From positions 128,001-192,000 of the forward strand of contig CAVTHS010000014.1 in assembly GCA_963734535.1 (NCBI GenBank): a stretch of DNA of 64,000 nucleotides. The letters are read 5' to 3'. Shown here in pieces: positions 29,644 through 51,339 of the stretch. Source of the DNA: an uncultured Chloroflexia bacterium (lineage in GTDB: Bacteria; Chloroflexota; Limnocylindria; Limnocylindrales; CSP1-4). A program made the position numbers and the translations under genes. How positions within the stretch are numbered: position 1 is the first letter of the stretch; each line of letters begins with the position of its first letter. The notes below the pieces were generated by a model, which worked only from the letters and a program-made list of their open reading frames with translations, made no database searches and was not told the origin of the DNA.

Positions 29644-31356
29644 ATGCCCAACCTCCCGGGCCTGGTCCAGATCGTCACGGTCCTGGCCGCCATCGTCCTG
29701 GTGACCCGCCCGCTGGGCGGGTACATGCGGCGCGTGTTCGAGGGCGAGCGGACGTTCCTCTCCCCTGTCATGCGACCCATCGAGCGCGGGATCTATCGGG
29801 TCATGGGCGTGGACGAGACCGTCGAGCAGCGCTGGACCGGCTACGCGGTGTCGATCCTGGTCTTCGCCTTCGTCGGCATCCTCGTCCTGTACGTCCAGCA
29901 GCGGGTCCAGGGCTCGTTGCCGCTCAATCCGAACGGCTTCGGAGCGGTTCCCCAGGACCTCTCGTTCAACACCGCCGTCAGCTTCGAGACCAACACGAAC
30001 TGGCAGAACTACAGCGGCGAGAACACGCTGAGCTACCTGACCCAGATGGCCGGGCTCACGGTTCGGAACTTCACCTCGGCCGCGATGGGTCTCGTGGTTG
30101 CCATCGCCCTGGCTCGCGGGCTGGTCCGACGCTCGGCGACAACCATCGGCAACTTCTGGGTGGACGTGACTCGGAGCACGCTCTACATCCTGCTCCCGAT
30201 CGCCTTCGTGGCGGCGCTCGTGCTGGTCTCCCAGGGTGTCGTCCAGACCCTCAATGCCTCGACCACCGTCCATACGCTCCAGGGAGCAAGCCAGACGATC
30301 AGCGTCGGTCCGTTCGCGTCGCAGGAGGCGATCAAGGAGCTCGGCAACAACGGCGGCGGCCCCTTCAACGCCAACTCGGCCCATCCCTTCGAGAATCCCA
30401 ACGGGCTCACGAACTGGCTCGAGATGTTCCTGATCCTGCTGATCCCGTTCGGCCTCACCAACACCTTCGGGCGGATGGCCGGCAACGAGAAGCAGGGCTG
30501 GGCGCTGTTCGCCGCCATGATGGTGCTCCTCGTCGTGGCGATCGCCGTGGTGACCTGGAGCGAGCAGCAGGGCAACCCGCTCTACCCGCAGGCCGTGAAC
30601 ACGGCCCTCGGCAACATGGAAGGCAAGGAGGTCCGCTTCGGCGCCGACACGAGCGCCTTCTTCGCCGCGGTGACGACCGGCACGAGCACCGGGGCCGTCA
30701 ACTCGATGCACGACAGCTTCCTGCCGCTCGGGGGCATGGTGCCGCTGGTCCTCATCCAGCTCGGCGAGATCACCCCCGGCGGAATCGGTGCCGGCTTCTA
30801 CGGCCACGTGATCTTCGGGGCGATCCTGGCCGTCTTCATCGCGGGCCTCATGGTCGGGCGGACCCCCGAGTACCTTGGCAAGAAGATCGAGTCATACGAG
30901 ATCAAGATGGCCATCCTGGCGGTGCTGGCCATGGGTGGCAGCATCCTCATCTTCTCGGCCATCGCGTCGGTCGCTCCAGCGGGTCTCGCCGGGCCCCTGA
31001 ACTCCGGGCCGCACGGCTTCAGCGAGATCCTCTACGCGTTCTCGAGCCAGACCGGCAACAACGGCTCGGCGTTCGCGGGCCTGACCGGCAACACCCTCTT
31101 CTACAACCTGTCGGGAGCCTCGGCGATGCTCATCGGCCGCTTCGCGGAGATCATCCCGGCCCTCGCGATCGCCGGGTCGATGGCGGCCAAGCGGCGGGTC
31201 GCGCCGTCGCTCGGAACCTTCCCGACCACGGGTCCCATCTGGGTCGCGCTGCTCATCGGGGTGATCGTGATCGTCGGCGCACTCACCTTCTTCCCGGCGC
31301 TCTCGCTGGGCCCAATCGTGGAGCAGCTCAAGATGGCCGCAGGCCAGGTGTTCTGA
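29644..31356 (+). CDS. kdpA: K+-transporting ATPase subunit A
   Basis: [29 protein letters not shown] and NNGSAFAGL. Confidence 0.97.
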
Positions 31357-31357
31357 G

Positions 31358-33559
31358 ATGATCAATCCAGCCCGCACGCCGACTATCGGGGCACGCCTCG
31401 TCCGGGCGGTCATCGACACGGGTCGCGGCACCCGCCGCATCCAGCGCGCCGAGCGCGAGGCGACCGCCGGAGCGCCGGGCGCCCCGAGGACGCCGCGGGG
31501 CATCTTCGATCCTGCCCTGCTGCGAGCCGCGCTCCGGCCGGCCCTTCGCAAGCTCGACCCGCGCGAGCTCTACAGGAACCCGGTCATGTTCGTCGTGGAG
31601 GTGACCGCAACGCTCGTCGCGCTGGTCTTCCTGGCCGACCTGGCGGGCATCACGACGGCCGCGACGGGCGAGGTCGGGCGGTCGCTGGGCTTCGAGCTCC
31701 AGATCGCGGCGTGGCTCTGGTTCACGGTCTACTTCGCCACGTACGCCGAGGCGCTCGCGGAGGCGCGCGGCAAGGCCCAGGCCGCGTCGCTGCGCAAGAC
31801 GCGTTCCGAGACGGCTGCCCACCGGCGGCGAGCCGACGGGACGCTCGAGGACGTCGGCTCGTCGCTCCTCCGCTCGGGAGACGTCATCGTGGTACGGGAC
31901 GGCGAGACGATCCCGGGAGACGGCGATGTCATCGAAGGCGTGGCCTACGTCAACGAAGCCGTCATCACCGGGGAGTCCGCCCCGGTCCTCAAGGAACCGG
32001 GCACCGACATCCGGAGCTCGGTCACCGGCGGCACGACGATCACCAGTGACACCCTCACCGTGCGCATCACGGCGAACCCGGGCGAGACATTCCTCGACCG
32101 GATGATCGCCCTCGTCGAGGGTGCGAAGCGACAGCGGACGCCAAACGAGATCGCGCTGTTCATCCTCCTCTCCGGCCTGACGATCGTCTTCCTGCTGGCG
32201 ACGGCGACCATCCGGCCGTTCGGCCTCTACGCGAACGCACAGCTGGGCCTCGTGGTCCTCGTGGCCCTGCTCGTCTGCCTGATCCCGACGACGATCGGGG
32301 GTCTCCTTTCGGCGATCGGCATCGCGGGCATGGACCGCGTGGCCCGCTTCAACGTCCTGGCGATGAGCGGCCGCGCCGTGGAGGCCTCCGGCGACGTCGA
32401 CGTGATCCTGCTCGACAAGACGGGCACCATCACGTTCGGCAACCGGCTGGCGTCCCGGATCGTGGCCGTGCCCGGCATCGACGAGCGCGACGCCGTCGAG
32501 GCAGCCCTGCTCACGTCGCTCGAGGACGAGACGCCGGAGGGCCGTTCGATCGTCGAGCTGGCGCGAACCCGGCTGGCCGCGCTGGGCGGGGCTGCCGACG
32601 TCCGGTCCGTTCCAGCCGGCGGGGCGGTGGCCCAGGTCGTGCCCTTCTCTGCGCAGTCGCGGACCAGCGGCGTGATCCTCGCCGACGGGACCGTCGTCCT
32701 CAAGGGCGCGGTGGACGCGATCGAGGCCGCCCTCGACGGCGCGGCGCCCCCGGCGCTGAAGGCGCTGAGCGACGAGATCGCGGGGCTCGGCGCAACGCCC
32801 CTGGCGATCCGCCGGAACGGGACGGTCCTGGGCGTGATCGAGCTCAAGGACACGGTCAAGCCCGGTCTCCGCGCCCGGTTCGACGAGCTTCGCCGGATGG
32901 GCATCCGGACGATCATGGTCACCGGCGACAATCCCCTGACCGCCCGGACGATCGCGGAAGAGGCCGGCGTGGACGACTTCATGGCCCAGGCCAAGCCAGA
33001 GGACAAGATCGCCCGGATCCGGGCCGAGCAGGCCGAGGGCCACCTCGTGGCGATGACCGGGGATGGCACGAACGACGCCCCGGCCGTGGCGCAAGCGGAC
33101 GTCGGGCTGGCGATGAACAGCGGGACGTCGGCGTGCAAGGAGGCCGCCAACATGGTCGACCTCGACTCCGACCCGACCAAGCTGATCGAGGTGATCGCGA
33201 TCGGCAAGCAGCTCCTCATCACCCGCGGCGCGATCACGACCTTCTCGATCGCCAACGATGTGGCCAAGTACTTCGCGATCCTGCCGGCGATGTTCGCGGT
33301 CGCGTACCCCGAGCTTCGCTCCCTGAACGTCATGGGTCTCGGCACGCCGGAGAGCGCCATCCTCTCGGCGGTGATCTTCAACGCGCTGATCATCATCGCC
33401 CTGGTCCCTCTTTCCCTGCGCGGCGTCGCCTACCGGGCGGCACCGGCTGCCGAGCTCTTGCGGCGCAACCTCCTGATCTACGGGGTCGGCGGCATCTTTG
33501 CGCCCTTCCTCGGGATCAAGCTGATCGACATCCTCGTCACCGCCGTCCACCTGGCGTAG
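31358..33559 (+). CDS. kdpB: K+-transporting ATPase subunit B
   Basis: [25 protein letters not shown] and [14 protein letters not shown]. Confidence 0.97.
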
Positions 33560-33568
33560 AGGTCTCCG

Positions 33569-34150
33569 ATGCGTGCGTTCGTCCGTCACCAGCTTTGGCC
33601 CGCAGTCGCCAGCCTGGCCCTCCTCACCCTCATCACCGGTTTCGTCTACCCGGCCGCCGTCACCGCGGTTGCCCAGGCCGTCTTCCCGAGCCAGGCCAAC
33701 GGCTCGTTCATCGTGGTGAACGGGACAACGGTCGGATCGAGCCTGATCGGCCAGGCCTTCAGTGACCCGAAGTACTTCTGGGGCCGGCCGTCGGCCGCCG
33801 GCGCGAACGGCTACGATGCGACCGCCTCGGGCGGCTCCAACCTTGGCCCCACGTCCAGGGCGCTCATCGATCGGATCACGAAGTCGGTTGACGACATGCG
33901 GGCAGCGAACGGGAACGCCCCGATCCCGGTCGACCTCGTGACGACCTCCGCCTCGGGGCTCGACCCGGACATCAGCCCGGACGCCGCCGAGTACCAGGTC
34001 GCACGCGTGGCGCAGGCGCGCGGCATGACCGCCGACCAGGTCCGGGCGCTGGTCGCGAAGCACACGAGCCAGCCGATCCTCGGCTTCCTGGGTGCGGCGA
34101 ACGTGAACGTCCTCGAGCTGAACCTGGACCTCGACGGGCTGTTGCGATGA
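33569..34150 (+). CDS. kdpC: K+-transporting ATPase subunit C
   Basis: YFWGRPSA, SASGLDPDIS and VNVLELNL. Confidence 0.96.
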   Translation: MRAFVRHQLWPAVASLALLTLITGFVYPAAVTAVAQAVFPSQANGSFIVVNGTTVGSSLIGQAFSDPKYFWGRPSAAGANGYDATASGGSNLGPTSRALIDRITKSVDDMRAANGNAPIPVDLVTTSASGLDPDISPDAAEYQVARVAQARGMTADQVRALVAKHTSQPILGFLGAANVNVLELNLDLDGLLR

Positions 34151-35304
34151 GCACGGGAGCCAGCGACCCGCAGCGCCCGACCGCGGACCAGATGCTGGCG
34201 CGCCTGCAGGCCGACGAGCGTCCGGCCCGCGGTCGGCTCCGGATCTACCTGGGGATGGCGCCCGGCGTCGGGAAGACATACAAGATGCTCGAGGAGGCGC
34301 ATCGCCGGCACGATCGCGGCACGGATGCGGTGGTCGGGTTCGTCGAGACGTACGGCCGCCGGCACACGGCCGCGCTGCTCGACGGGCTCGAGGCGGTTCC
34401 GAGGCGGCGGATCGAGTACCGCGGCGTGGTGGTGGAGGAGATGGACGCCCAGGCGATCATCGACCGGCATCCGACGGTCGTCCTCGTCGACGAGCTCGCC
34501 CACACGAATGTGCCCGGCGCCGATCGGGAGAAGCGTTGGCAGGATGTCGAGCTGATCCGCGATGCCTCGATCGATGTCATCAGCACCTGCAACGTGCAGC
34601 ACATCGAATCCGTCGCCGCGGTCGTCGAGACGATCCTGGGCGTTCCCGTCCACGAGCGCGTGCCCGACGACGTCGTCCGCATGGCCGACGAGATCGAGCT
34701 CGTGGACATGAGCCCCCACGCCCTCCGGCAGCGGATGAGACACGGGAACGTCTATTCCCCGGACCGGGCCGCGATCGCCCTGGAGCGCTTCTTCACCGAG
34801 CCGAACCTCATCGCCCTGCGCGATCTCAGCCTGCGCTTCGTCGCCGGCCAGGTGGACCGCGAGCTCGAGGACCGCGTGGCCGAGCAGGGCATCGGCGTTC
34901 CGCCGGTCACGGAGCGAGTGACCGTCCTGGTCGACGAATCCCTGGCCTGCCGGCGGGCCGTGCGTCGCGCCGCATCGCTCGCCTCCGCGCTCCATGCCAC
35001 GCTCCTCGCCGTTGCCATCGAGTCAGCCGGTGTCCAGCTGTCGCGCGACCGCCAGCGGGACCTCCAGTCGAACGTCGACTACGCGGTCGATCTCGGCGCA
35101 GAGATCATCCGCGGCGAGACGTCGGACCTCGCCAGGGGCCTCGAGGAGGTGCTGCGAGACCAGCGCGTCACGCATCTCGTGCTTGCCCACCACCCTCGTC
35201 ACGGGATGGATCGCCTCGGCAGGCCGTCGCTGGCCGAGCGCATTCTCGCCGCGGTGCCGGGGATCGAGGTCCACCTGATCAGCGAATCGCCTCCGGTGGC
35301 ATGA
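34147..35304 (+). CDS. Stand-alone KdpD N-terminal plus USP-like domain protein
   Basis: YLGMAPGVGKTY, VDELAHTN, KRWQDV and NVQHIES; no TM or kinase domain. Confidence 0.9.
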   Translation: MSTGASDPQRPTADQMLARLQADERPARGRLRIYLGMAPGVGKTYKMLEEAHRRHDRGTDAVVGFVETYGRRHTAALLDGLEAVPRRRIEYRGVVVEEMDAQAIIDRHPTVVLVDELAHTNVPGADREKRWQDVELIRDASIDVISTCNVQHIESVAAVVETILGVPVHERVPDDVVRMADEIELVDMSPHALRQRMRHGNVYSPDRAAIALERFFTEPNLIALRDLSLRFVAGQVDRELEDRVAEQGIGVPPVTERVTVLVDESLACRRAVRRAASLASALHATLLAVAIESAGVQLSRDRQRDLQSNVDYAVDLGAEIIRGETSDLARGLEEVLRDQRVTHLVLAHHPRHGMDRLGRPSLAERILAAVPGIEVHLISESPPVA

Positions 35305-36466: not shown

Positions 36467-36883
36467 GTGGACTGGAAGCTCGAGCTCATCGTGGTCCCCG
36501 TCTCCGACGTCGACCGCGCCAAGACCTTCTATCTCGAGAAGGCCGGTTTCAGCCTGGACGTCGACCATGTCGCGGGCGACTTCCGGGTCGTGCAACTGAC
36601 GCCCGCAGGGTCTGCGTGCTCGATCGCCCTCATGCGGCACACGGAGGGAGCCGCGGGGTCGCTCCAGGGTCTGCAGCTCGTCGTCACCGACATCGACGCC
36701 GCGCGTTCCGAGCTCGTTGGACGAGGGATGGACGCGAGCGAGATCTTCCACTTCGAGTCCGGCCGGCAGGTGCCGGGCCCCGATCCCGAGCGCGCCCCGT
36801 ACAACTCGTTCCTCTCGTTCAGCGACCCAGACGGCAACGGCTGGATGGTCCAGGAGGGGAGGCGCGCCGAGTCGCCGGCCTGA
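36467..36883 (+). CDS. VOC/glyoxalase family protein
   Basis: VPVSDVDRAKTFY and FSDPDGNGW. Confidence 0.88.
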   Translation: MDWKLELIVVPVSDVDRAKTFYLEKAGFSLDVDHVAGDFRVVQLTPAGSACSIALMRHTEGAAGSLQGLQLVVTDIDAARSELVGRGMDASEIFHFESGRQVPGPDPERAPYNSFLSFSDPDGNGWMVQEGRRAESPA

Positions 36884-36959: not shown

Positions 36960-37187
36960 TCACCGGGCGGTGCGCGTCTCCACCCCGCGGTCGTCGGCCT
37001 GGCCGGACGGCTGGACAATCCTGCCCGACCACCCACCCCCCTCGGCCTCGACGAGCCGCTCGAGCTCGCCCTGGTCGAGGAAGATGCCCCGGCAGTCCTC
37101 GCACTGCTCGACGAGGATCGTGCTGCGCTCGTACGGGCGCATGCGCCCGCCGCACTTCGGGCACGCGAGTTCGCGCGAGGCTGTCAT
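36960..37187 (-). CDS. Small zf-TFIIB-like zinc-ribbon protein
   Basis: CPKC-x17-CEDCRGIFLDQGELE; AAGGAG SD. Confidence 0.85.
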   Translation of the reverse strand: MTASRELACPKCGGRMRPYERSTILVEQCEDCRGIFLDQGELERLVEAEGGGWSGRIVQPSGQADDRGVETRTAR

Positions 37188-37311
37188 CGGCTACTCCTTC
37201 GAGGTGGGGTCGAGCCGGGACGCGCGCCGATCCGAGGAATGCCAGGCCGGCCGCATCGGGGAGGGTGGTGGCGACGGAGGGAGTCCATCAGCGGCTCCGG
37301 CAGGAACGTAT

Positions 37312-37406
37312 CGAAGGTCTCGCCCGCTCGCACAGCGGCCCGCCGACCGGGCGTGCCAGCGGCCCGCCGGGATGTCGATCGAACGGAGGTGGACTACTCC
37401 CCTTCG
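37312..37406 (-). ncRNA. yybP-ykoY (Mn2+) riboswitch
   Basis: CGAAGGGGAGTAG ... TCGACATC ... GGCGAGACCTTCG with P1 = CGAAGG/CCTTCG; TATGAT -10 at 37413-37418. Confidence 0.82.
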
Positions 37407-37655
37407 CGCTCCATCATACGGAGACGCCTCGACTCCGCTCATGCCGCTTGGCCTGAAGGTCGGCTGAACGGCTCTCGCGGGGCTGGGCCCCGTCGCGCCA
37501 CCTCGCGCGCAGGCCATCCCGGGCCTCATGGGCCGTTGCCGCGGGCAGATCGGCCCTTGTCGCGCCTCGCTGGCGGCGTCGACGATCGCGGGGCGGCGAT
37601 CGGCGCGACCCCGATTGAGGTCCAACGCGGGCTGCGCGCGCCCGCCGGAGGTGGC

Positions 37656-38606
37656 ATGTCTCTCGTCATCGACGGGCTTCGCAAGCGCTTCGACGAGGTG
37701 GTGGCCCTCGACGGCGTCGGCTTCACCGTCAACCCCGGCCAGGTGTTCGGCTTCCTCGGCCCCAACGGTGCCGGGAAGACCACGACCATGCGCATCGTCC
37801 TCGACATCCTCCACGCTGACCAAGGCTCGGTGACGTGGAAGGGCCAGGCCGCCGCCCGCGTTGCCAAGCGCACGTGGGGCTACCTGCCCGAGGACCGCGG
37901 GCTGTACCCACGGATGAAGGTCCTCGATCAGCTCGTGTTCTTCGGGTCGCTCCATGGGCTCACGCGCGCCGACGCGGCAGCGCGCACCAGGCACTGGCTC
38001 GCCCGCTTTCGCATCAGCGACTATGCGACGCGACGGGCCGACCAGCTGAGCAAGGGCAACCAGCAGAAGGTCCAGTTCATCGCGGGAATCCTGCACGACC
38101 CGGACGTCCTCCTCATGGACGAGCCGTTCTCCGGCCTCGACCCGATCAATGCAGCCCTCCTCAAGGACGCGTTCCTGGAGCTGAAGGACCGGGGCAGGGC
38201 GATCGTGTTCAGCACCCACCAGATGGACCAGGTCGAGGAGCTGTGCGATGCGATCGCGATCATCGATCGCGGCCGGATGGTGGTGAGCGGCGCCACGGCC
38301 GAGGTGCGCCGGCAAGCAGGGCGCCGGGTCGTGCAAATCGCCGTCGCCGGCGACCCGGATCTCGCCTGGCTCGACGCCCTGCCCGGCGTCCTCGTGACTC
38401 GCTCGGGCCTCGACTACCACGAGCTGGACGTTCGCGACGGGGGCAACCCGGACAGCATCCTGCGCGCCGCCTTCGATCGGGGCGCACAGGTGACCCGCTT
38501 CGAGATCGCGGACCCATCGATCGAGGATATCTTCATCGAACGCGTCGGGGTGACGAGCACCGAGGAACGAACGCTGGCGGCCGCGCCGGCGGAGGTCGCC
38601 CGATGA
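37656..38606 (+). CDS. ABC exporter ATP-binding subunit (NatA/YhaQ-like)
   Basis: GPNGAGKTT, LSKGNQQK and DEPFSGLDP. Confidence 0.92.
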   Translation: MSLVIDGLRKRFDEVVALDGVGFTVNPGQVFGFLGPNGAGKTTTMRIVLDILHADQGSVTWKGQAAARVAKRTWGYLPEDRGLYPRMKVLDQLVFFGSLHGLTRADAAARTRHWLARFRISDYATRRADQLSKGNQQKVQFIAGILHDPDVLLMDEPFSGLDPINAALLKDAFLELKDRGRAIVFSTHQMDQVEELCDAIAIIDRGRMVVSGATAEVRRQAGRRVVQIAVAGDPDLAWLDALPGVLVTRSGLDYHELDVRDGGNPDSILRAAFDRGAQVTRFEIADPSIEDIFIERVGVTSTEERTLAAAPAEVAR

Positions 38607-39970
38607 GCCCGGAGTGGTCGGCCAACGTCGCCAACATCGGGGCCGTGACGCGCCGGGAGTTCGTCACCCGGACCGGCAACCGCGGCTTCATCATCTCGAC
38701 CCTGATTCTCGTCATCGCGTCGGTCGCGATCGGGCTGGCGCCCGTGGTGATCCGGTTCATCGACCGTAACACCACCCAGACCGTCGCCGTCTACGCGGGA
38801 GCGGCCGACCTGCACGGCGACCCGGTGGCCACCCTCGACGCGCTCCTCAATGCCGCGGCCGGCACCCCTCCGCCGAACGGATCCGGCGCGAACGGCGGGA
38901 AGAGGGACTTCACCGTCGAGCCCGCCGCCGACCCGGCTGCCGCACGCCAGGGCGTGCTCGACGGAACGCTGAATGCCCTGGTCGACATCGAGCGAGACCC
39001 GACAGGCGAGCCCGTCTTCACGATCTACGCCAAGGATCCCGGGACCAGCCGCACGGTGACCCTGATCCGCCAGGCGGTCGCCTCCATCGCGATCGCCGAC
39101 CGGCTCGGCAACGCGGGCCTCTCGGTGGCCGAGCAGTCGCACCTCTTCTCACCCCCGACGGTGCGAGCCCTCTCGCCCGACCCTGCGAAGCAGGGCCCGG
39201 ACGGGCAGCCCTCCCCTGCAAAGACCGCGACCGACGAGATCAGCAACTTCGCGGTCACCTTCGGCCTGGTGATGTTCCTCTTCCTCGCCGTGATCATCTA
39301 TGGCACGTGGATCGCGATGAGCGTCGTCGAAGAGAAGACGAACCGGGTGATGGAGATCATCCTCTCTACCGCTTCGCCATTCCAGCTGCTCGCGGGCAAG
39401 GTCCTCGGGGTCGGCGGCGCGGCCCTGACGCAGTACCTCGCGGTGCTGGCGGCCGCGCTCGCCGCGATCCTGCTCCAGGGCCAGGTCGCCGCCCTCGTGC
39501 TCGGGGATTCTGGCGGGCTCAGCCTGCCGACGGGGCTCACGCCGGGAATCCTGCTGGTCTTCTCGGTCTACTTCGTGCTGGGGTTCATGCTGTACGCGGT
39601 GCTCTTCGCGGCCGCGGGCTCGCTCGTGAGCCGCCAGGAAGACGTGAGCCAGGTCGTGACGCCGATGACCCTGGTCTCGACCGCGGGCTACCTCATCGGC
39701 CTGTATGCGTCCATCGGCATCGTCGACGCGAACGCCTCCTGGGTCGTGGCTCTCTCGTGGGTCCCGTTCCTCTCGCCATACATGATGCTCGGGCGCCTGA
39801 GCGCCGGCGAAGCCGGGCCGGTCGAGGTCGTCGGGACGATGGCGCTCATGGTCGTCACGATCGTCGTCGCCGTCTGGGTGGCGGCCCGCATCTACAGCGC
39901 CGGCGTCCTGATGTACGGCCAGCGGCCCGGCATCCGGCGCATGTGGAAGGCGCTCCGCGAGGCCCGCTGA
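38603..39970 (+). CDS. ABC-2 type permease (NatB/YhaP-like)
   Basis: SVVEEKTNRVMEI, LLAGKVLG and ARIYSAGVLMYG. Confidence 0.9.
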   Translation: MSPEWSANVANIGAVTRREFVTRTGNRGFIISTLILVIASVAIGLAPVVIRFIDRNTTQTVAVYAGAADLHGDPVATLDALLNAAAGTPPPNGSGANGGKRDFTVEPAADPAAARQGVLDGTLNALVDIERDPTGEPVFTIYAKDPGTSRTVTLIRQAVASIAIADRLGNAGLSVAEQSHLFSPPTVRALSPDPAKQGPDGQPSPAKTATDEISNFAVTFGLVMFLFLAVIIYGTWIAMSVVEEKTNRVMEIILSTASPFQLLAGKVLGVGGAALTQYLAVLAAALAAILLQGQVAALVLGDSGGLSLPTGLTPGILLVFSVYFVLGFMLYAVLFAAAGSLVSRQEDVSQVVTPMTLVSTAGYLIGLYASIGIVDANASWVVALSWVPFLSPYMMLGRLSAGEAGPVEVVGTMALMVVTIVVAVWVAARIYSAGVLMYGQRPGIRRMWKALREAR

Positions 39971-40986: not shown

Positions 40987-41087
40987 GCCCCGGCTCGGCA
41001 GCCGCGTGACCGCGAGGGTCTTCCCGTCCGGCGGGGACCGCGGGCACGGGTTCGGGCCTCGCCCCGGCATGGGATGATCGGCAGCCG

Positions 41088-42158
41088 ATGGAAGTCGCTG
41101 CATTCGCCGTGGGCGTGCTCCTCCTGGCGCTCGCCTTCTGGGACCTGTTCGAGACGGTCGTCGTGCCACGGCCGACGCCGGGCTGGTTTCGAATCAGCCG
41201 GTACCTCGTGCGCGGCTCGTGGCGCGGTCTCCGGGCCATCCTGAGCGCCCTGCCCGCCAGGTCCCACGACACGATCCTGGGGCTGTTCGCCCCTGCGGCC
41301 ACCGTCGCCCTCCTGGGAGCCTGGCTCGTCACCCTCATCGCCGGGTATGGCCTGATCCTGTTCGCCCTGCGCGATGAGCTGCGGCCGGTGTCGCCCGATC
41401 TCGGCAGCTCGCTGTACTTCGCCGCGAGCTCCGTGCTGACCCTGGGGTTCGGCGACATCGTGGCGACCGGTGCGGCGGCGCGCATCGTCATCGTGGTGGC
41501 GGCGGTGACCGGCCTCGGGACCGTCGCCCTCGTCGTGACCTTCCTCTTCTCGCTGTACGGCTCATACCAGCGCCGCGAGATCCGGGTCGTCGCCCTGCAG
41601 GCGGCGGCGGGGGCACCGCCCTCGGCCGTCGCCCTTCTCGAGAACTACGCCCTGCTTGGCCTCATGGGGCGCCTCCCCGACCTCTTCCTCGAATGGGAGG
41701 ACTGGGCCGTCGAGGTCCTCAATTCGCACATCGCCTACCCATTGCTGGGCTTCTTCCGCTCGAGCCACGACAACCTGTCCTGGATCAGCGCCCTCGGGAC
41801 CATCCTCGACGCCGCAAGCCTGGTGCTCACGACGATCAGCGGCGTGCCGCGTGGCGAGGCCAAGCTGGCCAAGCGCGTGGGCACGCACCTGGTGGAGGAC
41901 ATCTTCAACCTCGGATTCCGCTCCGGCATCCCGACGGGCCTGGATCGCGCGGCATTCGACGCGGCGTGCAGTCGTCTCGAGGAGGCGGGCTACACCCTCG
42001 AGGCACGCGATGCCGCCTGGCCCCATTTCGAGGCCGCTCGCGCCACCTATGCGCCGCGCCTGGAGGCGATGGCCCGCTACTGGGCCACGCCGGCAACGTC
42101 GTGGCTCGGCGATCCGGTCGGTTTGAGGGCGCCGCTCCACCCGGTGGATGACCCGTAG
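41088..42158 (+). CDS. Potassium channel family protein (Ion_trans_2-like)
   Basis: LYFAASSVLTLGFGD filter; SHIAYPLLGFFRS. Confidence 0.82.
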   Translation: MEVAAFAVGVLLLALAFWDLFETVVVPRPTPGWFRISRYLVRGSWRGLRAILSALPARSHDTILGLFAPAATVALLGAWLVTLIAGYGLILFALRDELRPVSPDLGSSLYFAASSVLTLGFGDIVATGAAARIVIVVAAVTGLGTVALVVTFLFSLYGSYQRREIRVVALQAAAGAPPSAVALLENYALLGLMGRLPDLFLEWEDWAVEVLNSHIAYPLLGFFRSSHDNLSWISALGTILDAASLVLTTISGVPRGEAKLAKRVGTHLVEDIFNLGFRSGIPTGLDRAAFDAACSRLEEAGYTLEARDAAWPHFEAARATYAPRLEAMARYWATPATSWLGDPVGLRAPLHPVDDP

Positions 42159-50965: not shown

Positions 50966-51339
50966 TGGTGGAGATGGGGGAGAGTCGAACTCCCCGTCCG
51001 AAACCCGTGACCCGGACCCACTACGAGCGTGTCCGATGCTTGATCTCGACCGACCCACCCCCATCGGCAGGGGCGATGATCGGTCCAGCTGCGTGTCCCT
51101 AGATCGGGCTTCGCTCCCGGCTACGCGGCGCTTGCCGGGGCTGCATCCCCGCTGAGTGACGCTTCCACGGCCCACGGGGAGGAGGCCGCTTCCACGCTCA
51201 CCTTACCGCCTAAGCGGCGAGGGCGAGAGCAGGCTGCTTGTTGGCAGTTACTTCGTTTTGCCGCCTTTTAACGAGGCCAGAGCGGCATCCTCGGCTCGCG
51301 TTTCCGGGCTGCAGGGCCCCGTCGAGACCACGCATCCCC
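50966..51339 (-). ncRNA. ssrA: tmRNA; tag reading frame ANKQPALALAA* at 51210-51245
   Basis: 5' GGGGATG pairs with 3' CATCTCC-ACCA (G3-U); T-arm GGAGTTCGACTCT; TAACT precedes resume codon GCC. Confidence 0.95.

Follow-up and report, generated by a model that had tools for sequence, protein, structure and literature searches.

Manganese riboswitches are taken to turn on exporters. Why, then, should the only one detectable in the genome of a Chloroflexota bacterium appear to control a soluble zinc-ribbon protein of 75 amino acids (hereafter ZR)? The locus lies on the minus strand of a stretch of 64,000 nucleotides, which was analysed as a whole and is called here 'the window'. A sequence-only reading of this stretch had placed a yybP-ykoY-type Mn2+ aptamer upstream of a monocistronic gene that encodes a Cys4 zinc ribbon. 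Every motif it named was found where it had put it, and the open reading frame, its PF13453 match and the convergent neighbour agree with this layout.

Layout of the leader and class of the aptamer

Along the minus strand, the leader begins with a -10-like hexamer, TATGAT (37413..37418), read from the sequence 6 nt 5' of the aptamer. The hexamer is the same in two close relatives, G023 and G029, and at the same distance the relatives in which the aptamer precedes a GDT1 gene have CACACT. A promoter scan of the leader found no full sigma-70 consensus; TATGAT may serve as promoter for a transcript comprising the aptamer and ZR. The aptamer itself, supported by two covariance models and by covariation, is 95 nt long (37312..37406). 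Its switch helix, P1, is formed by the 5' strand CGAAGG (37401..37406), which pairs with 37312-37317, and the L1 core GGGGAGUAG (37394..37402) is identical to GGGGAGUAG in the RF00080 consensus line; this 5' part reads CGAAGG GGAGTAG at 37406-37394. The L3 core, ACAUCCC, occupies 37369..37375, with A37373 at the Mn-coordinating adenosine position as judged by the L3 consensus. On the 3' side, which reads GGGC GAGA CCTTCG (37325-37312), the segment made of GAGA and the P1 3' strand CCUUCG (37312..37321) is the same in all 14 genus sequences. It includes, on the 3' side of the switch helix, GAGACC (37321-37316), which is part of the yybP-ykoY class consensus.

A C-rich linker of 109 nt (37203..37311) connects the aptamer to the ribosome-binding site, and no intrinsic terminator was detected in the leader, linker included, by a terminator scan. 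Its length is not conserved: among the three relatives it ranges between about 55 nt, the value for G029, and about 150 nt, and in G023 it is longer than in G029. It is followed by UCGAAGG (37202-37196), read from the sequence as a complement of the P1 3' strand, which overlaps the Shine-Dalgarno (SD) sequence AAGGAG (37199-37194), the two together spanning 37194..37202. The ZR open reading frame (36960..37187) starts with an ATG at 37187. The next gene, on the plus strand, ends at 36883 and is convergent, so that the ZR gene is monocistronic. A search for sequencing runs containing this DNA found no RNA run; the best DNA run held 0.41 of its words, and the others at most 0.10.

The covariance-model search proposed in the sequence-only reading did not give the significant match expected of it. 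RF00080 did not match the window aptamer at the gathering threshold (45 bits), and relaxing the limit to E<=10 brought no match either, whether 751 nt, 141 nt or the complete genome was searched; at E<=1 none of 36 genus genomes was matched. Scans of the region with Rfam, under both the gathering score and E<=10, yielded nothing beyond chance matches to miRNAs and sRNAs. The sensitivity of the RF00080 search is low here, though: only two of the 14 control genomes reached the cut-off, as did a single one of 151 phylum genomes. The best RF00080 score in a family relative was 20.1 bits (L031; E 7e-4 in 241 nt), with GGGGAGUAG and AUCGACAUGCUGG..CCCGGUC aligned against GGGGAGUAG and GUCAACAUACUUGG..CCAUGGC of the consensus. 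Since the RF00080 test failed, class membership rests on other evidence.

This evidence comes first from conservation. When the 511-nt intergenic stretch was compared by blastn with 60 relatives, 11 genus genomes matched exactly positions 252-350 of the query (window 37409-37311), at 76-81% identity, while the flanks showed no conservation; the matches to G023 and G029 were longer than this block. A covariance model, R1, was built from 14 genus sequences (the 11 relatives, G023, G029 and the window). It scored 88.8 bits on the window aptamer, against 23.2 bits for the runner-up within the 64-kb window, and found matches in 21 of 151 family genomes, representing 14 of 49 genera. A second model, R2, gave 83.5 bits on the window aptamer, its sole match in the genome, and matched 23 of 41 genus genomes, as well as 23 of 151 class genomes, among them 14 of 50 in a second family (the unpublished G410 and G429 counted). 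At ten RF00080-positive phylum loci, R1 landed on the RF00080 site in 5 at E<0.1 and in 7 at E<1.

Pair support was examined on 35 distinct sequences, in alignments fitted to the model built here and therefore biased towards the proposed structure: 95.8% of cells were paired (98.6% for the P1 helix), and 18 of 27 pairs had changed on both sides. None of 500 shuffles reached this support, and slid controls were 22-53% paired. The RNAalifold consensus comprises P1, P1.2, the P3 leg and P4. The window aptamer lacks P2 and has a three-way junction like that of E. coli alx. In divergent members of the family, GUAGNCC is followed by an additional hairpin, which makes the junction the canonical four-way one. 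L1 GGGGAGUAG is nearly invariant throughout the family alignment. For L3, the consensus is ACAUACU, in which the third-position A coordinates Mn2+ (PMC12153347). The window L3 agrees with it at 4/7 positions, the invariant A included, and that of the genus relatives (ACAUGCU) at 6/7, while the TerC- and ZR-linked family members L041, L042, L047, L063 and L068-L071 have an L3 beginning with UCA. The minimum free energy of the leader, compared with shuffles, was not lower (z = +1.24), a measure that is uninformative for GC-rich RNA.

The yybP-ykoY-type identity put forward in the sequence-only reading is thus backed by the cores, the covarying architecture, the reciprocal model matches and the gene context in relatives. 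We conclude that, as far as sequence can tell, 37312-37406 on the minus strand is a genuine, atypical member of the class in a compact, P2-less form. It departs from the class in that no exporter gene lies downstream, ZR being there alone, and from the alx-like subgroup, whose three-way junction it has, in the absence of a U-first L3 and of TerC. Here a riboswitch class already described is paired with an effector gene that is new to it.

Downstream genes and the zinc-ribbon protein

In all 11 genus relatives, a GDT1/UPF0016 gene is found about 65 nt downstream of the aptamer, and other relatives have a TerC, P-type ATPase or CaCA-like gene at this place. Bacterial UPF0016 genes have been reported under yybP-ykoY control in 328 of 333 cases (PMC7380456). 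In the window, G023 and G029, the aptamer lies upstream of the 75-aa PF13453 ZR gene only. The claim that ZR is controlled here 'instead of a transporter' is therefore correct for this locus, where ZR stands alone, but not as a general description: the aptamer of the same genus precedes GDT1, and in other genera ZR lies with TerC or a P-type ATPase in one operon under the riboswitch.

ZR homologues were present in 19 of 151 family genomes. A survey of zf-TFIIB genes following the riboswitch, suggested with the sequence-only reading, showed that the association recurs. A same-strand upstream aptamer (RS) was found at 8 of 20 family ZR loci, the window excluded, with the layouts RS-ZR-TerC, RS-ZR-P-type ATPase, RS-ZR, RS-ZR-M50 and, four times, RS-TerC-ZR. 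As 7-8 other genera are involved, the association is not an accident of one genome. Three further loci of the 20 adjoin exporters (CDF-ZR-ATPase, CDF-ZR and ZR-ATPase), and the other nine have neither aptamer nor exporter nearby. Among 80 Actinomycetota ZR loci, a same-strand upstream aptamer was detected at 3 (with R2) and an exporter-like gene at 6 (by tblastn). These unlinked loci, nine in the family and most of those in Actinomycetota, indicate that the link is confined to a lineage and a subfamily. In the family studied here, ZR genes recur in or beside TerC, P-type ATPase and CDF operons, whether or not the riboswitch is present, so that ZR most probably acts as a small, soluble regulator of Mn or cation efflux, or as a partner in it.

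The protein itself has a CPKC...CEDC motif; a helix comes next, then a GGGWSG motif, and the tail is disordered. Residues 9-48 match PF13453 (Zn_ribbon_TFIIB) with 62.8 bits (cut-off 22), and C9, C12, C29 and C32 are invariant among 21 homologues. The AF2 model, of moderate confidence (mean pLDDT 66.8), predicts three strands (15-37), a helix (38-49) and a low-confidence tail, that is, the zinc ribbon plus helix of PF13453 proteins. The closest solved structure is 8yoz, ZifS (TTHA0897) of Thermus thermophilus, by phmmer (E 3.4e-8, residues 7-49), and it is also the top Foldseek match of the model (48% identity). ZifS shares with ZR the PF13453-type zinc ribbon and following helix; its match leaves the GGGWSG tail of ZR uncovered, and ZifS has no known link to Mn. 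No significant NCBIfam family was obtained for ZR, and among fusions 12 longer proteins were found, all with PF13453 only and none informative.

It had also been proposed that the Cys4 site might buffer Mn. Mn2+ prefers O/N ligands, which makes this chemically unlikely, and a role as partner or regulator, suggested by the neighbourhoods, fits them better than buffering does. Our literature searches found no paper joining yybP-ykoY with a zinc ribbon, nothing on the PF13453/zf-TFIIB zinc ribbon, and no paper on the function of ZifS/TTHA0897/8YOZ. Dambach et al. in 2015 reportedly surveyed genes downstream of the yybP-ykoY riboswitch, and that survey may already list zinc-ribbon genes.

Possible modes of switching and competing readings

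We consider it fairly probable that the yybP-ykoY-class aptamer acts as an Mn2+ ON switch for ZR, itself a probable efflux partner or regulator. A translational mechanism, as proposed in the sequence-only reading, is plausible. The RNA comprising the aptamer and ZR would be transcribed from a promoter just 5' of the aptamer. Mn2+ bound between L1 and L3 would lock the P1 switch helix, as in other class members; without Mn2+, the P1 3' strand CCUUCGA would be free to pair with UCGAAGG over the Shine-Dalgarno, and ZR would be translated mainly at high Mn2+. What the sequence shows is a short complementarity: UCGAAGG is a 7-nt perfect complement to the P1 3' strand, a match reached by 3 of 200 shuffles, and it is paired with that strand in the unconstrained minimum free energy fold. 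Of 17 GDT1-linked leaders, which are related to one another and thus not independent, 15 also contain at +21 to +31 a stretch of 6 nt or more that is complementary to this strand. With P1 forced or blocked, modelled SD exposure went from 0.35 to 0.49 in the window, from 0.30 to 0.63 in G029 and from 0.40 to 0.22 in G023, so that the shifts are small and their direction differs among the three relatives.

A more specific version of the preferred reading is held only tentatively: ZR could be a hitherto unnoticed Mn-induced cofactor (activator, adaptor or metal-delivery protein) of exporters from at least three unrelated families, TerC, P-type ATPase and CDF, the riboswitch being rewired here to the cofactor alone. 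In this genome, no GDT1, TerC or MntP gene was detected; it does encode a CDF (contig C8) and a P-type ATPase (contig C7). The site syntenic with the GDT1 locus was found on contig C7. GDT1 is missing from it, and it spans 433 bp, compared with about 2.6 kb in G007. We also considered that the window locus might be a GDT1 locus from which the transporter had been deleted. None of the GDT1 loci in G006, G007, G011 and G012 shares synteny with the window, and the true syntenic site on C7 leads us to reject this origin. The AKR-glyoxalase-ZR locus has only the AKR gene in common with five more distant genus members.

Among the readings that compete with an ON switch for ZR, the one that survives best, although we regard it as unlikely, is that of a relic: the aptamer would be homologous to working switches and inactive in this clade, having been left or recombined before ZR after the loss of GDT1, and ZR would be constitutive. 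Such a history would fit the absence of GDT1 from this genome, G023 and G029, the collapse of the syntenic site, and the fact that the window aptamer is closest (77-79%) to the GDT1-linked aptamers of its own genus. It would also fit the variable linker and the inconsistent modelling of SD exposure. Also in its favour is the aptamer of G029 (of the syntenic relatives with a long contig, the closest one), in which U replaces A at the Mn-coordinating position and L1 differs by three substitutions. A change of this kind at the Mn-coordinating A is reported to abolish Mn sensing (PMC12153347). These substitutions suggest that constraint on the aptamer may be relaxed, and the RS-ZR arrangement may be decaying in the window clade. 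In the window and G023, however, no change affects L1 (GGGGAGUAG), L3 ACA, GAGA or either strand of P1; all three genomes retain the -10-like hexamer and the overlap of anti-P1 sequence and SD, and adjacency of RS and ZR with intact cores is found in 7-8 further genera.

A second competing reading, quite improbable in our view, accepts a functional aptamer but replaces SD occlusion by an effect on transcription, exerted through RNA stability or Rho-dependent termination, or makes the aptamer an OFF switch. The lack of any intrinsic terminator in the scan and the small, mixed effects in the SD modelling are in its favour, and the C-rich linker (37203-37311) could conceivably load Rho. It is opposed by the overlap of the SD with the anti-P1 sequence and by what is described for the class, in which known members are ON switches for exporters (PMC12153347; PMC8632737).

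It is very improbable that the RNA senses a divalent cation other than Mn2+, such as Ca2+, or responds to pH in combination with metal, ZR then belonging to a general cation-efflux response. The genes linked to the aptamer do include CaCA-like antiporters, Ca/Mn-type P-type ATPases and GDT1, a role in Ca2+ efflux has been suggested for the S. pneumoniae switch and pH effects described in E. coli (PMC8632737), and the window L3 is off consensus at 3/7 positions; conservation extends to the L1 core and to the A that coordinates Mn, however, and GDT1 and TerC are classic Mn riboswitch partners. Chance resemblance in a GC-rich leader without structured RNA, which the missing Rfam match and a fold stability no better than that of shuffles might have suggested, is already contradicted by a conserved block between unconserved flanks, the R1 matches in the family, reciprocal matches on RF00080 sites, covariation and the consistent exporter context in relatives, and has a negligible probability.

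Relation to known manganese systems

In form, the window aptamer resembles that of E. coli alx, which is also P2-less with a three-way junction. Control in alx is translational, the 3' half of the switch helix (P1.1) changing its pairing partner (PMC12153347), as we propose here. The alx switch has a U-first L3 (UCAUUAC) and TerC downstream, two features shared by the TerC-linked members of this bacterial family (UCAU...). Unlike alx, the window aptamer has an A-first L3 (ACAUCCC), as in the mntP-like consensus, and is followed by a soluble zinc-ribbon protein, not by TerC. According to PMC12153347, alx-like switches are exclusive to Enterobacteriales; the window organism belongs to Chloroflexota.

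With the canonical switches (E. coli mntP, L. lactis yoaB, B. subtilis yybP/ykoY; RF00080), the window aptamer shares L1 GGGGAGUAG, an L3 ACA with the Mn-coordinating A, and GAGACC before the P1 3' strand, and its relatives share the exporter genes downstream. It differs from them in the lack of P2, in short, GC-rich P3.2 and P4 helices, in a score below any reportable RF00080 threshold, and in a regulated gene that is no membrane transporter.

For a soluble protein as effector, the nearest comparison is MntS of E. coli. MntS is made at low Mn, whereas ZR would be made at high Mn and has a Cys4 zinc ribbon. It sets a precedent for the modulation of Mn export, through the exporter MntP, by a protein that is very small and soluble, and its overexpression raises Mn toxicity, suggesting action on MntP (PMC8632737). 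The Mn riboswitch regulon of B. subtilis also includes proteins that are not classical exporters, such as YybP (PMC13598126; PMC8632737), but this is a predicted membrane protein, and ZR is a soluble zinc ribbon of 75 aa.

The locus thus points to a blind spot: the Rfam model overlooks an entire lineage of Mn aptamers that are GC-rich and have no P2, and regulon surveys based on RF00080 would miss such switches together with their unusual cargo. The field is still working on the mode of action of TerC and GDT1, and if the cofactor reading is true, exporter activity, not exporter synthesis, would be the regulated step. ZR is a concrete, testable new candidate in bacterial manganese homeostasis.

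Locus and conservation of the aptamer

The hallmark motifs and the 75-aa zinc-ribbon ORF noticed in the sequence-only reading were all present on the minus strand. A TATGAT hexamer (37418-37413), CGAAGG-GGAGUAG (37406-37394), GGGC-GAGA-CCUUCG (37325-37312) and the ATG start codon (37187) could be read from the sequence, and UCGAAGG (37202-37196) overlaps the Shine-Dalgarno (SD) AAGGAG at 37199-37194. The ORF (36960-37187, hereafter ZR) matches PF13453, Zn_ribbon_TFIIB, with 62.8 bits for a cut-off of 22. It was rightly described as monocistronic, since the next gene, on the plus strand, ends at 36883; by eye we take this gene to be glyoxalase/VOC-like, and its translated frame gave no Pfam match. 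Divergent from the element is an ABC transporter (37656-39970, plus strand), whose ATPase gene starts at 37656, encodes ABC_tran and DrrA1-3_C domains and precedes a permease-like ORF. It is missing at the corresponding place of G029, a close relative with an aptamer before ZR, where a homologue of window gene 41010-42158 abuts the aptamer. Plus-strand ORFs at about 31300-35300, a putative P-type ATPase among them, look by eye like a Kdp potassium-uptake cluster, with KdpC-like (33569-34150) and KdpD N-terminal-like (34147-35304) ORFs. The sole Rfam match at gathering score in the window is a tmRNA gene (50966-51339, minus strand, 120.5 bits).

When the 511-nt intergenic region was compared with 60 relatives by blastn, a block at query positions 252-350 (window 37409-37311) was conserved at 76-81% identity in 11 genus genomes, with no conservation of its flanks on either side in these genomes; matches were longer in G029 and in G023, a second close relative with an aptamer before ZR. 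A covariance model, R1, was built from 14 sequences (the 11 genus relatives, G023, G029 and the window). It gave the window element 88.8 bits, the runner-up in the window reaching 23.2. Of 151 family genomes searched with R1, 21 contained the element, spread over 14 of 49 genera. A broader model, R2, had hits in 23 of the 41 genomes of the genus and in 23 of 151 class genomes, including 14 of 50 from a second family, a tally that takes in two unpublished genomes. The E-values of both models are rough because calibration was short.

The Rfam yybP-ykoY model RF00080, the check proposed in the sequence-only reading, gave no hit at gathering score in the window (Rfam 15), no match at E<=10 in the 751 or 141 nt around the element, none in the whole genome (37 candidates scored), and none at E<=1 in 36 genus genomes. 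This search is weak in the present setting: only two of the 14 control genomes, and a single one among 151 from the phylum, passed its cut-off. In the structure line of this 177-position model, the first 25 positions, GGGGAGUAG included, are unpaired. We conclude that the element is real despite the failure of RF00080, and that RF00080 as run overlooks a whole lineage of GC-rich aptamers.

Class membership and proposed switch mechanism

RNAalifold predicted a three-way junction made of P1 (CGAAGG/CCUUCG), P1.2 (GUCC/GGGC), P3 as a long leg and P4 as a short hairpin. Across 35 distinct sequences, in an alignment fitted to the home-built model, 95.8% of cells held standard pairs and both partners varied in 18 of 27 pairs; not one of 500 shuffles equalled these values, and slid controls were 22-53% paired. 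For the yybP-ykoY class, an excerpt of PMC12153347 describes two legs meeting at a four-way junction; for alx of E. coli it gives a three-way junction lacking P2, and the window aptamer resembles alx in both respects. Divergent family members carry an additional hairpin directly after GUAGNCC, which restores the classical four-way junction. Family member L031 scored 20.1 bits with RF00080, its GGGGAGUAG and AUCGACAUGCUGG...CCCGGUC aligning with the consensus GGGGAGUAG and GUCAACAUACUUGG...CCAUGGC. Reciprocally, when R1 was run on 10 phylum loci positive for RF00080, its hit coincided with the RF00080 site in 5 at E<0.1 and in 7 at E<1. The same excerpt gives the L3 core as ACAUACU (UCAUUAC in alx-like switches), with the A at the third nucleotide coordinating Mn; L3 is ACAUCCC in the window, with this A at 37373, and ACAUGCU in genus relatives. 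Sequence cores, architecture and reciprocal hits together point to membership of the yybP-ykoY class, with scores below the formal Rfam threshold.

Aptamers of TerC- or ZR-linked operons in the family (L041, L042, L047, L063, L065, L068-L071), mostly placed before TerC, also lack P2, and their L3 begins with U (UCAU..., UCAA...), apart from one CCAU. PMC12153347 lists such features for alx-like switches and calls these switches exclusive to Enterobacteriales. The features may reflect convergence, or a subgroup wider than reported.

Members of the class use the expression platform as an alternative pairing partner for the 3' half of the switch helix (PMC12153347, excerpt). The complementarity proposed between the 3' strand of P1 and the SD-overlapping segment was confirmed as 7 perfect nucleotides, a length reached by 3 of 200 shuffles, and the two strands are paired in the unconstrained minimum free energy fold. 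Among 17 GDT1-linked leaders, which are related sequences and not independent, 15 contain a stretch of 6 nt or more (GGUCGA[A/G]GG) complementary to the same P1 strand, at +21 to +31; for this reason, alternative pairing of the switch helix looks like the platform logic of the family. Forcing or blocking P1 shifted the predicted SD exposure little and in no consistent direction. A scan of the leader found neither an intrinsic terminator nor a full sigma-70 consensus. We regard the translational ON switch of the sequence-only reading as the most likely mechanism, at about an even chance, the main alternative being Rho-dependent control.

In the G029 aptamer (L003, C4:147548-147641), GGCGACGAG replaces GGGGAGUAG, with three L1-core substitutions, and L3 reads ACUU for ACAU. 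The latter replaces A by U where Mn is coordinated, a substitution of the type reported to abolish Mn sensing (PMC12153347, excerpt). Such changes count as evidence against a working switch in the clade of the window, G023 and G029; at the L1 and Mn-coordinating positions concerned, neither the window nor G023 is altered. The switch may be decaying in G029; alternatively, the substitutions may stem from an error in the MAG consensus.

Exporters and zinc-ribbon genes around the aptamer

In all 11 genus relatives, a GDT1/UPF0016 gene (about 190 aa, two ELGDK(S/T) motifs) starts about 65 nt downstream of the aptamer. Elsewhere in the family and class, the aptamer is followed by GDT1, TerC, a P-type ATPase or a CaCA-like antiporter. 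According to an excerpt of a review (PMC7380456), 328 of 333 bacterial UPF0016 genes lie under a yybP-ykoY riboswitch, and these contexts are the regulon expected of the class. Among 17 further class loci (two from unpublished genomes left out), TerC followed the aptamer in 8, GDT1 in 1, a CaCA-like antiporter in 2, and ZR in none. At L190 (G066 C62), the aptamer has a CDF gene immediately before it and a CaCA-like antiporter after it, all on one strand.

Of 151 family genomes, 19 contain ZR homologues, at 20 loci besides the window, and in 8 of these 20 an aptamer lies upstream on the same strand (R1, filters off). The layouts, with RS for the aptamer, are RS-ZR-TerC (G097), RS-ZR-P-type ATPase (G194), RS-ZR (G107), RS-ZR-M50 peptidase (G161) and RS-TerC-ZR (G108, G137, G091, G191). 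The claim that ZR stands 'instead of a transporter' therefore holds for the window, where the aptamer precedes ZR alone, but not for relatives whose operons include TerC or a P-type ATPase. Three more family loci adjoin exporters without an aptamer: two in G154, where a CDF gene (Cation_efflux and ZT_dimer domains) is directly upstream of ZR (L062 on C53, with an E1-E2 ATPase after ZR, and L072 on C321), and one in G197 (ZR-P-type ATPase). No exporter was found among ORFs of at least 200 aa within 1.5 kb of the remaining family loci. Within the genus, ZR occurs in 11 of 41 genomes; it adjoins the aptamer in the window's genome, G023, G029 and G031 (RS-TerC-ZR), and a P-type ATPase in G010 (P-type ATPase-ZR) and G353 (ZR-P-type ATPase). 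Pairs of ZR paralogues spaced by about 3.3 kb, with a P-type ATPase gene apparently between them and no detectable aptamer, were seen at G197 C1:2018423-2021895, G353 C6:267351-270816 and G010 C18:356-3802. Among the best 80 ZR loci from species representatives, mostly Actinomycetota, only 3 had an upstream aptamer (R2), all in MAGs titled Chloroflexia; exporter-like genes were nearby in 6 and CDF in 1. The link of ZR with aptamer and exporters fades outside the window's family.

The window's genome contains a single aptamer (R2), and GDT1, TerC and MntP were not found in its assembly (completeness about 90%). In two genus relatives, G007 and G011, the RS-GDT1 locus has flanks collinear with contig C7 of this genome, where 433 bp (108369-108802) separate genes about 2.6 kb apart in G007 (L025, 9894-12529). 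The RS-GDT1 cassette is missing from this site, and an assembly gap does not account for the lack of GDT1. Elsewhere the genome encodes one CDF protein and a P-type ATPase that shares 40% identity with its riboswitch-linked counterpart. The AKR-glyoxalase-ZR arrangement is common only to this genome, G023 and G029. The window aptamer is closest to same-genus GDT1-linked aptamers (77-79%), with 75% to the RS-ZR-ATPase aptamer. It seems reasonable that a GDT1-type aptamer may have been rewired onto ZR.

The zinc-ribbon protein as cargo

In 21 ZR homologues, C9, C12, C29 and C32 are invariant, as are R21, G34, L37, D38, G40, E41 and L42. The AF2 model (pLDDT 66.8, moderate) has three strands, a helix and a disordered tail. 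Among solved structures the closest is Thermus thermophilus ZifS (TTHA0897; PDB 8yoz), on whose function our literature search found no paper. Two features of TerC-linked ZRs, runs of poly-Asp and a conserved FLGELxEGFG(D/E) at the C terminus, are absent from the window ZR. Asp runs of 6-13 with this motif were found in L068 (1480-1806) and L071 (1168-1671), both in RS-TerC-ZR operons, and in L070 (1477-1842), an RS-ZR layout; they may form a docking peptide or a hard-cation site. A search for longer forms found no fused ZR.

Judging from gene neighbourhood, ZR would most probably be a partner or regulator of cation exporters and, second, a nucleic-acid-binding regulator. The metal-buffering role suggested in the sequence-only reading comes last, because a site of four cysteines coordinates Mn2+ poorly.

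No description of ZR as cargo of a Mn riboswitch was found in the literature searched, a scope outside which the key 2015 survey falls. We conclude that the element is a P2-less, GC-rich form of a known riboswitch class overlooked by Rfam, and that ZR is a new kind of cargo, whose link to the switch and to three exporter families recurs across genera. Such aptamers and their unusual cargo escape Rfam-based detection here, RF00080 being blind to the whole lineage.
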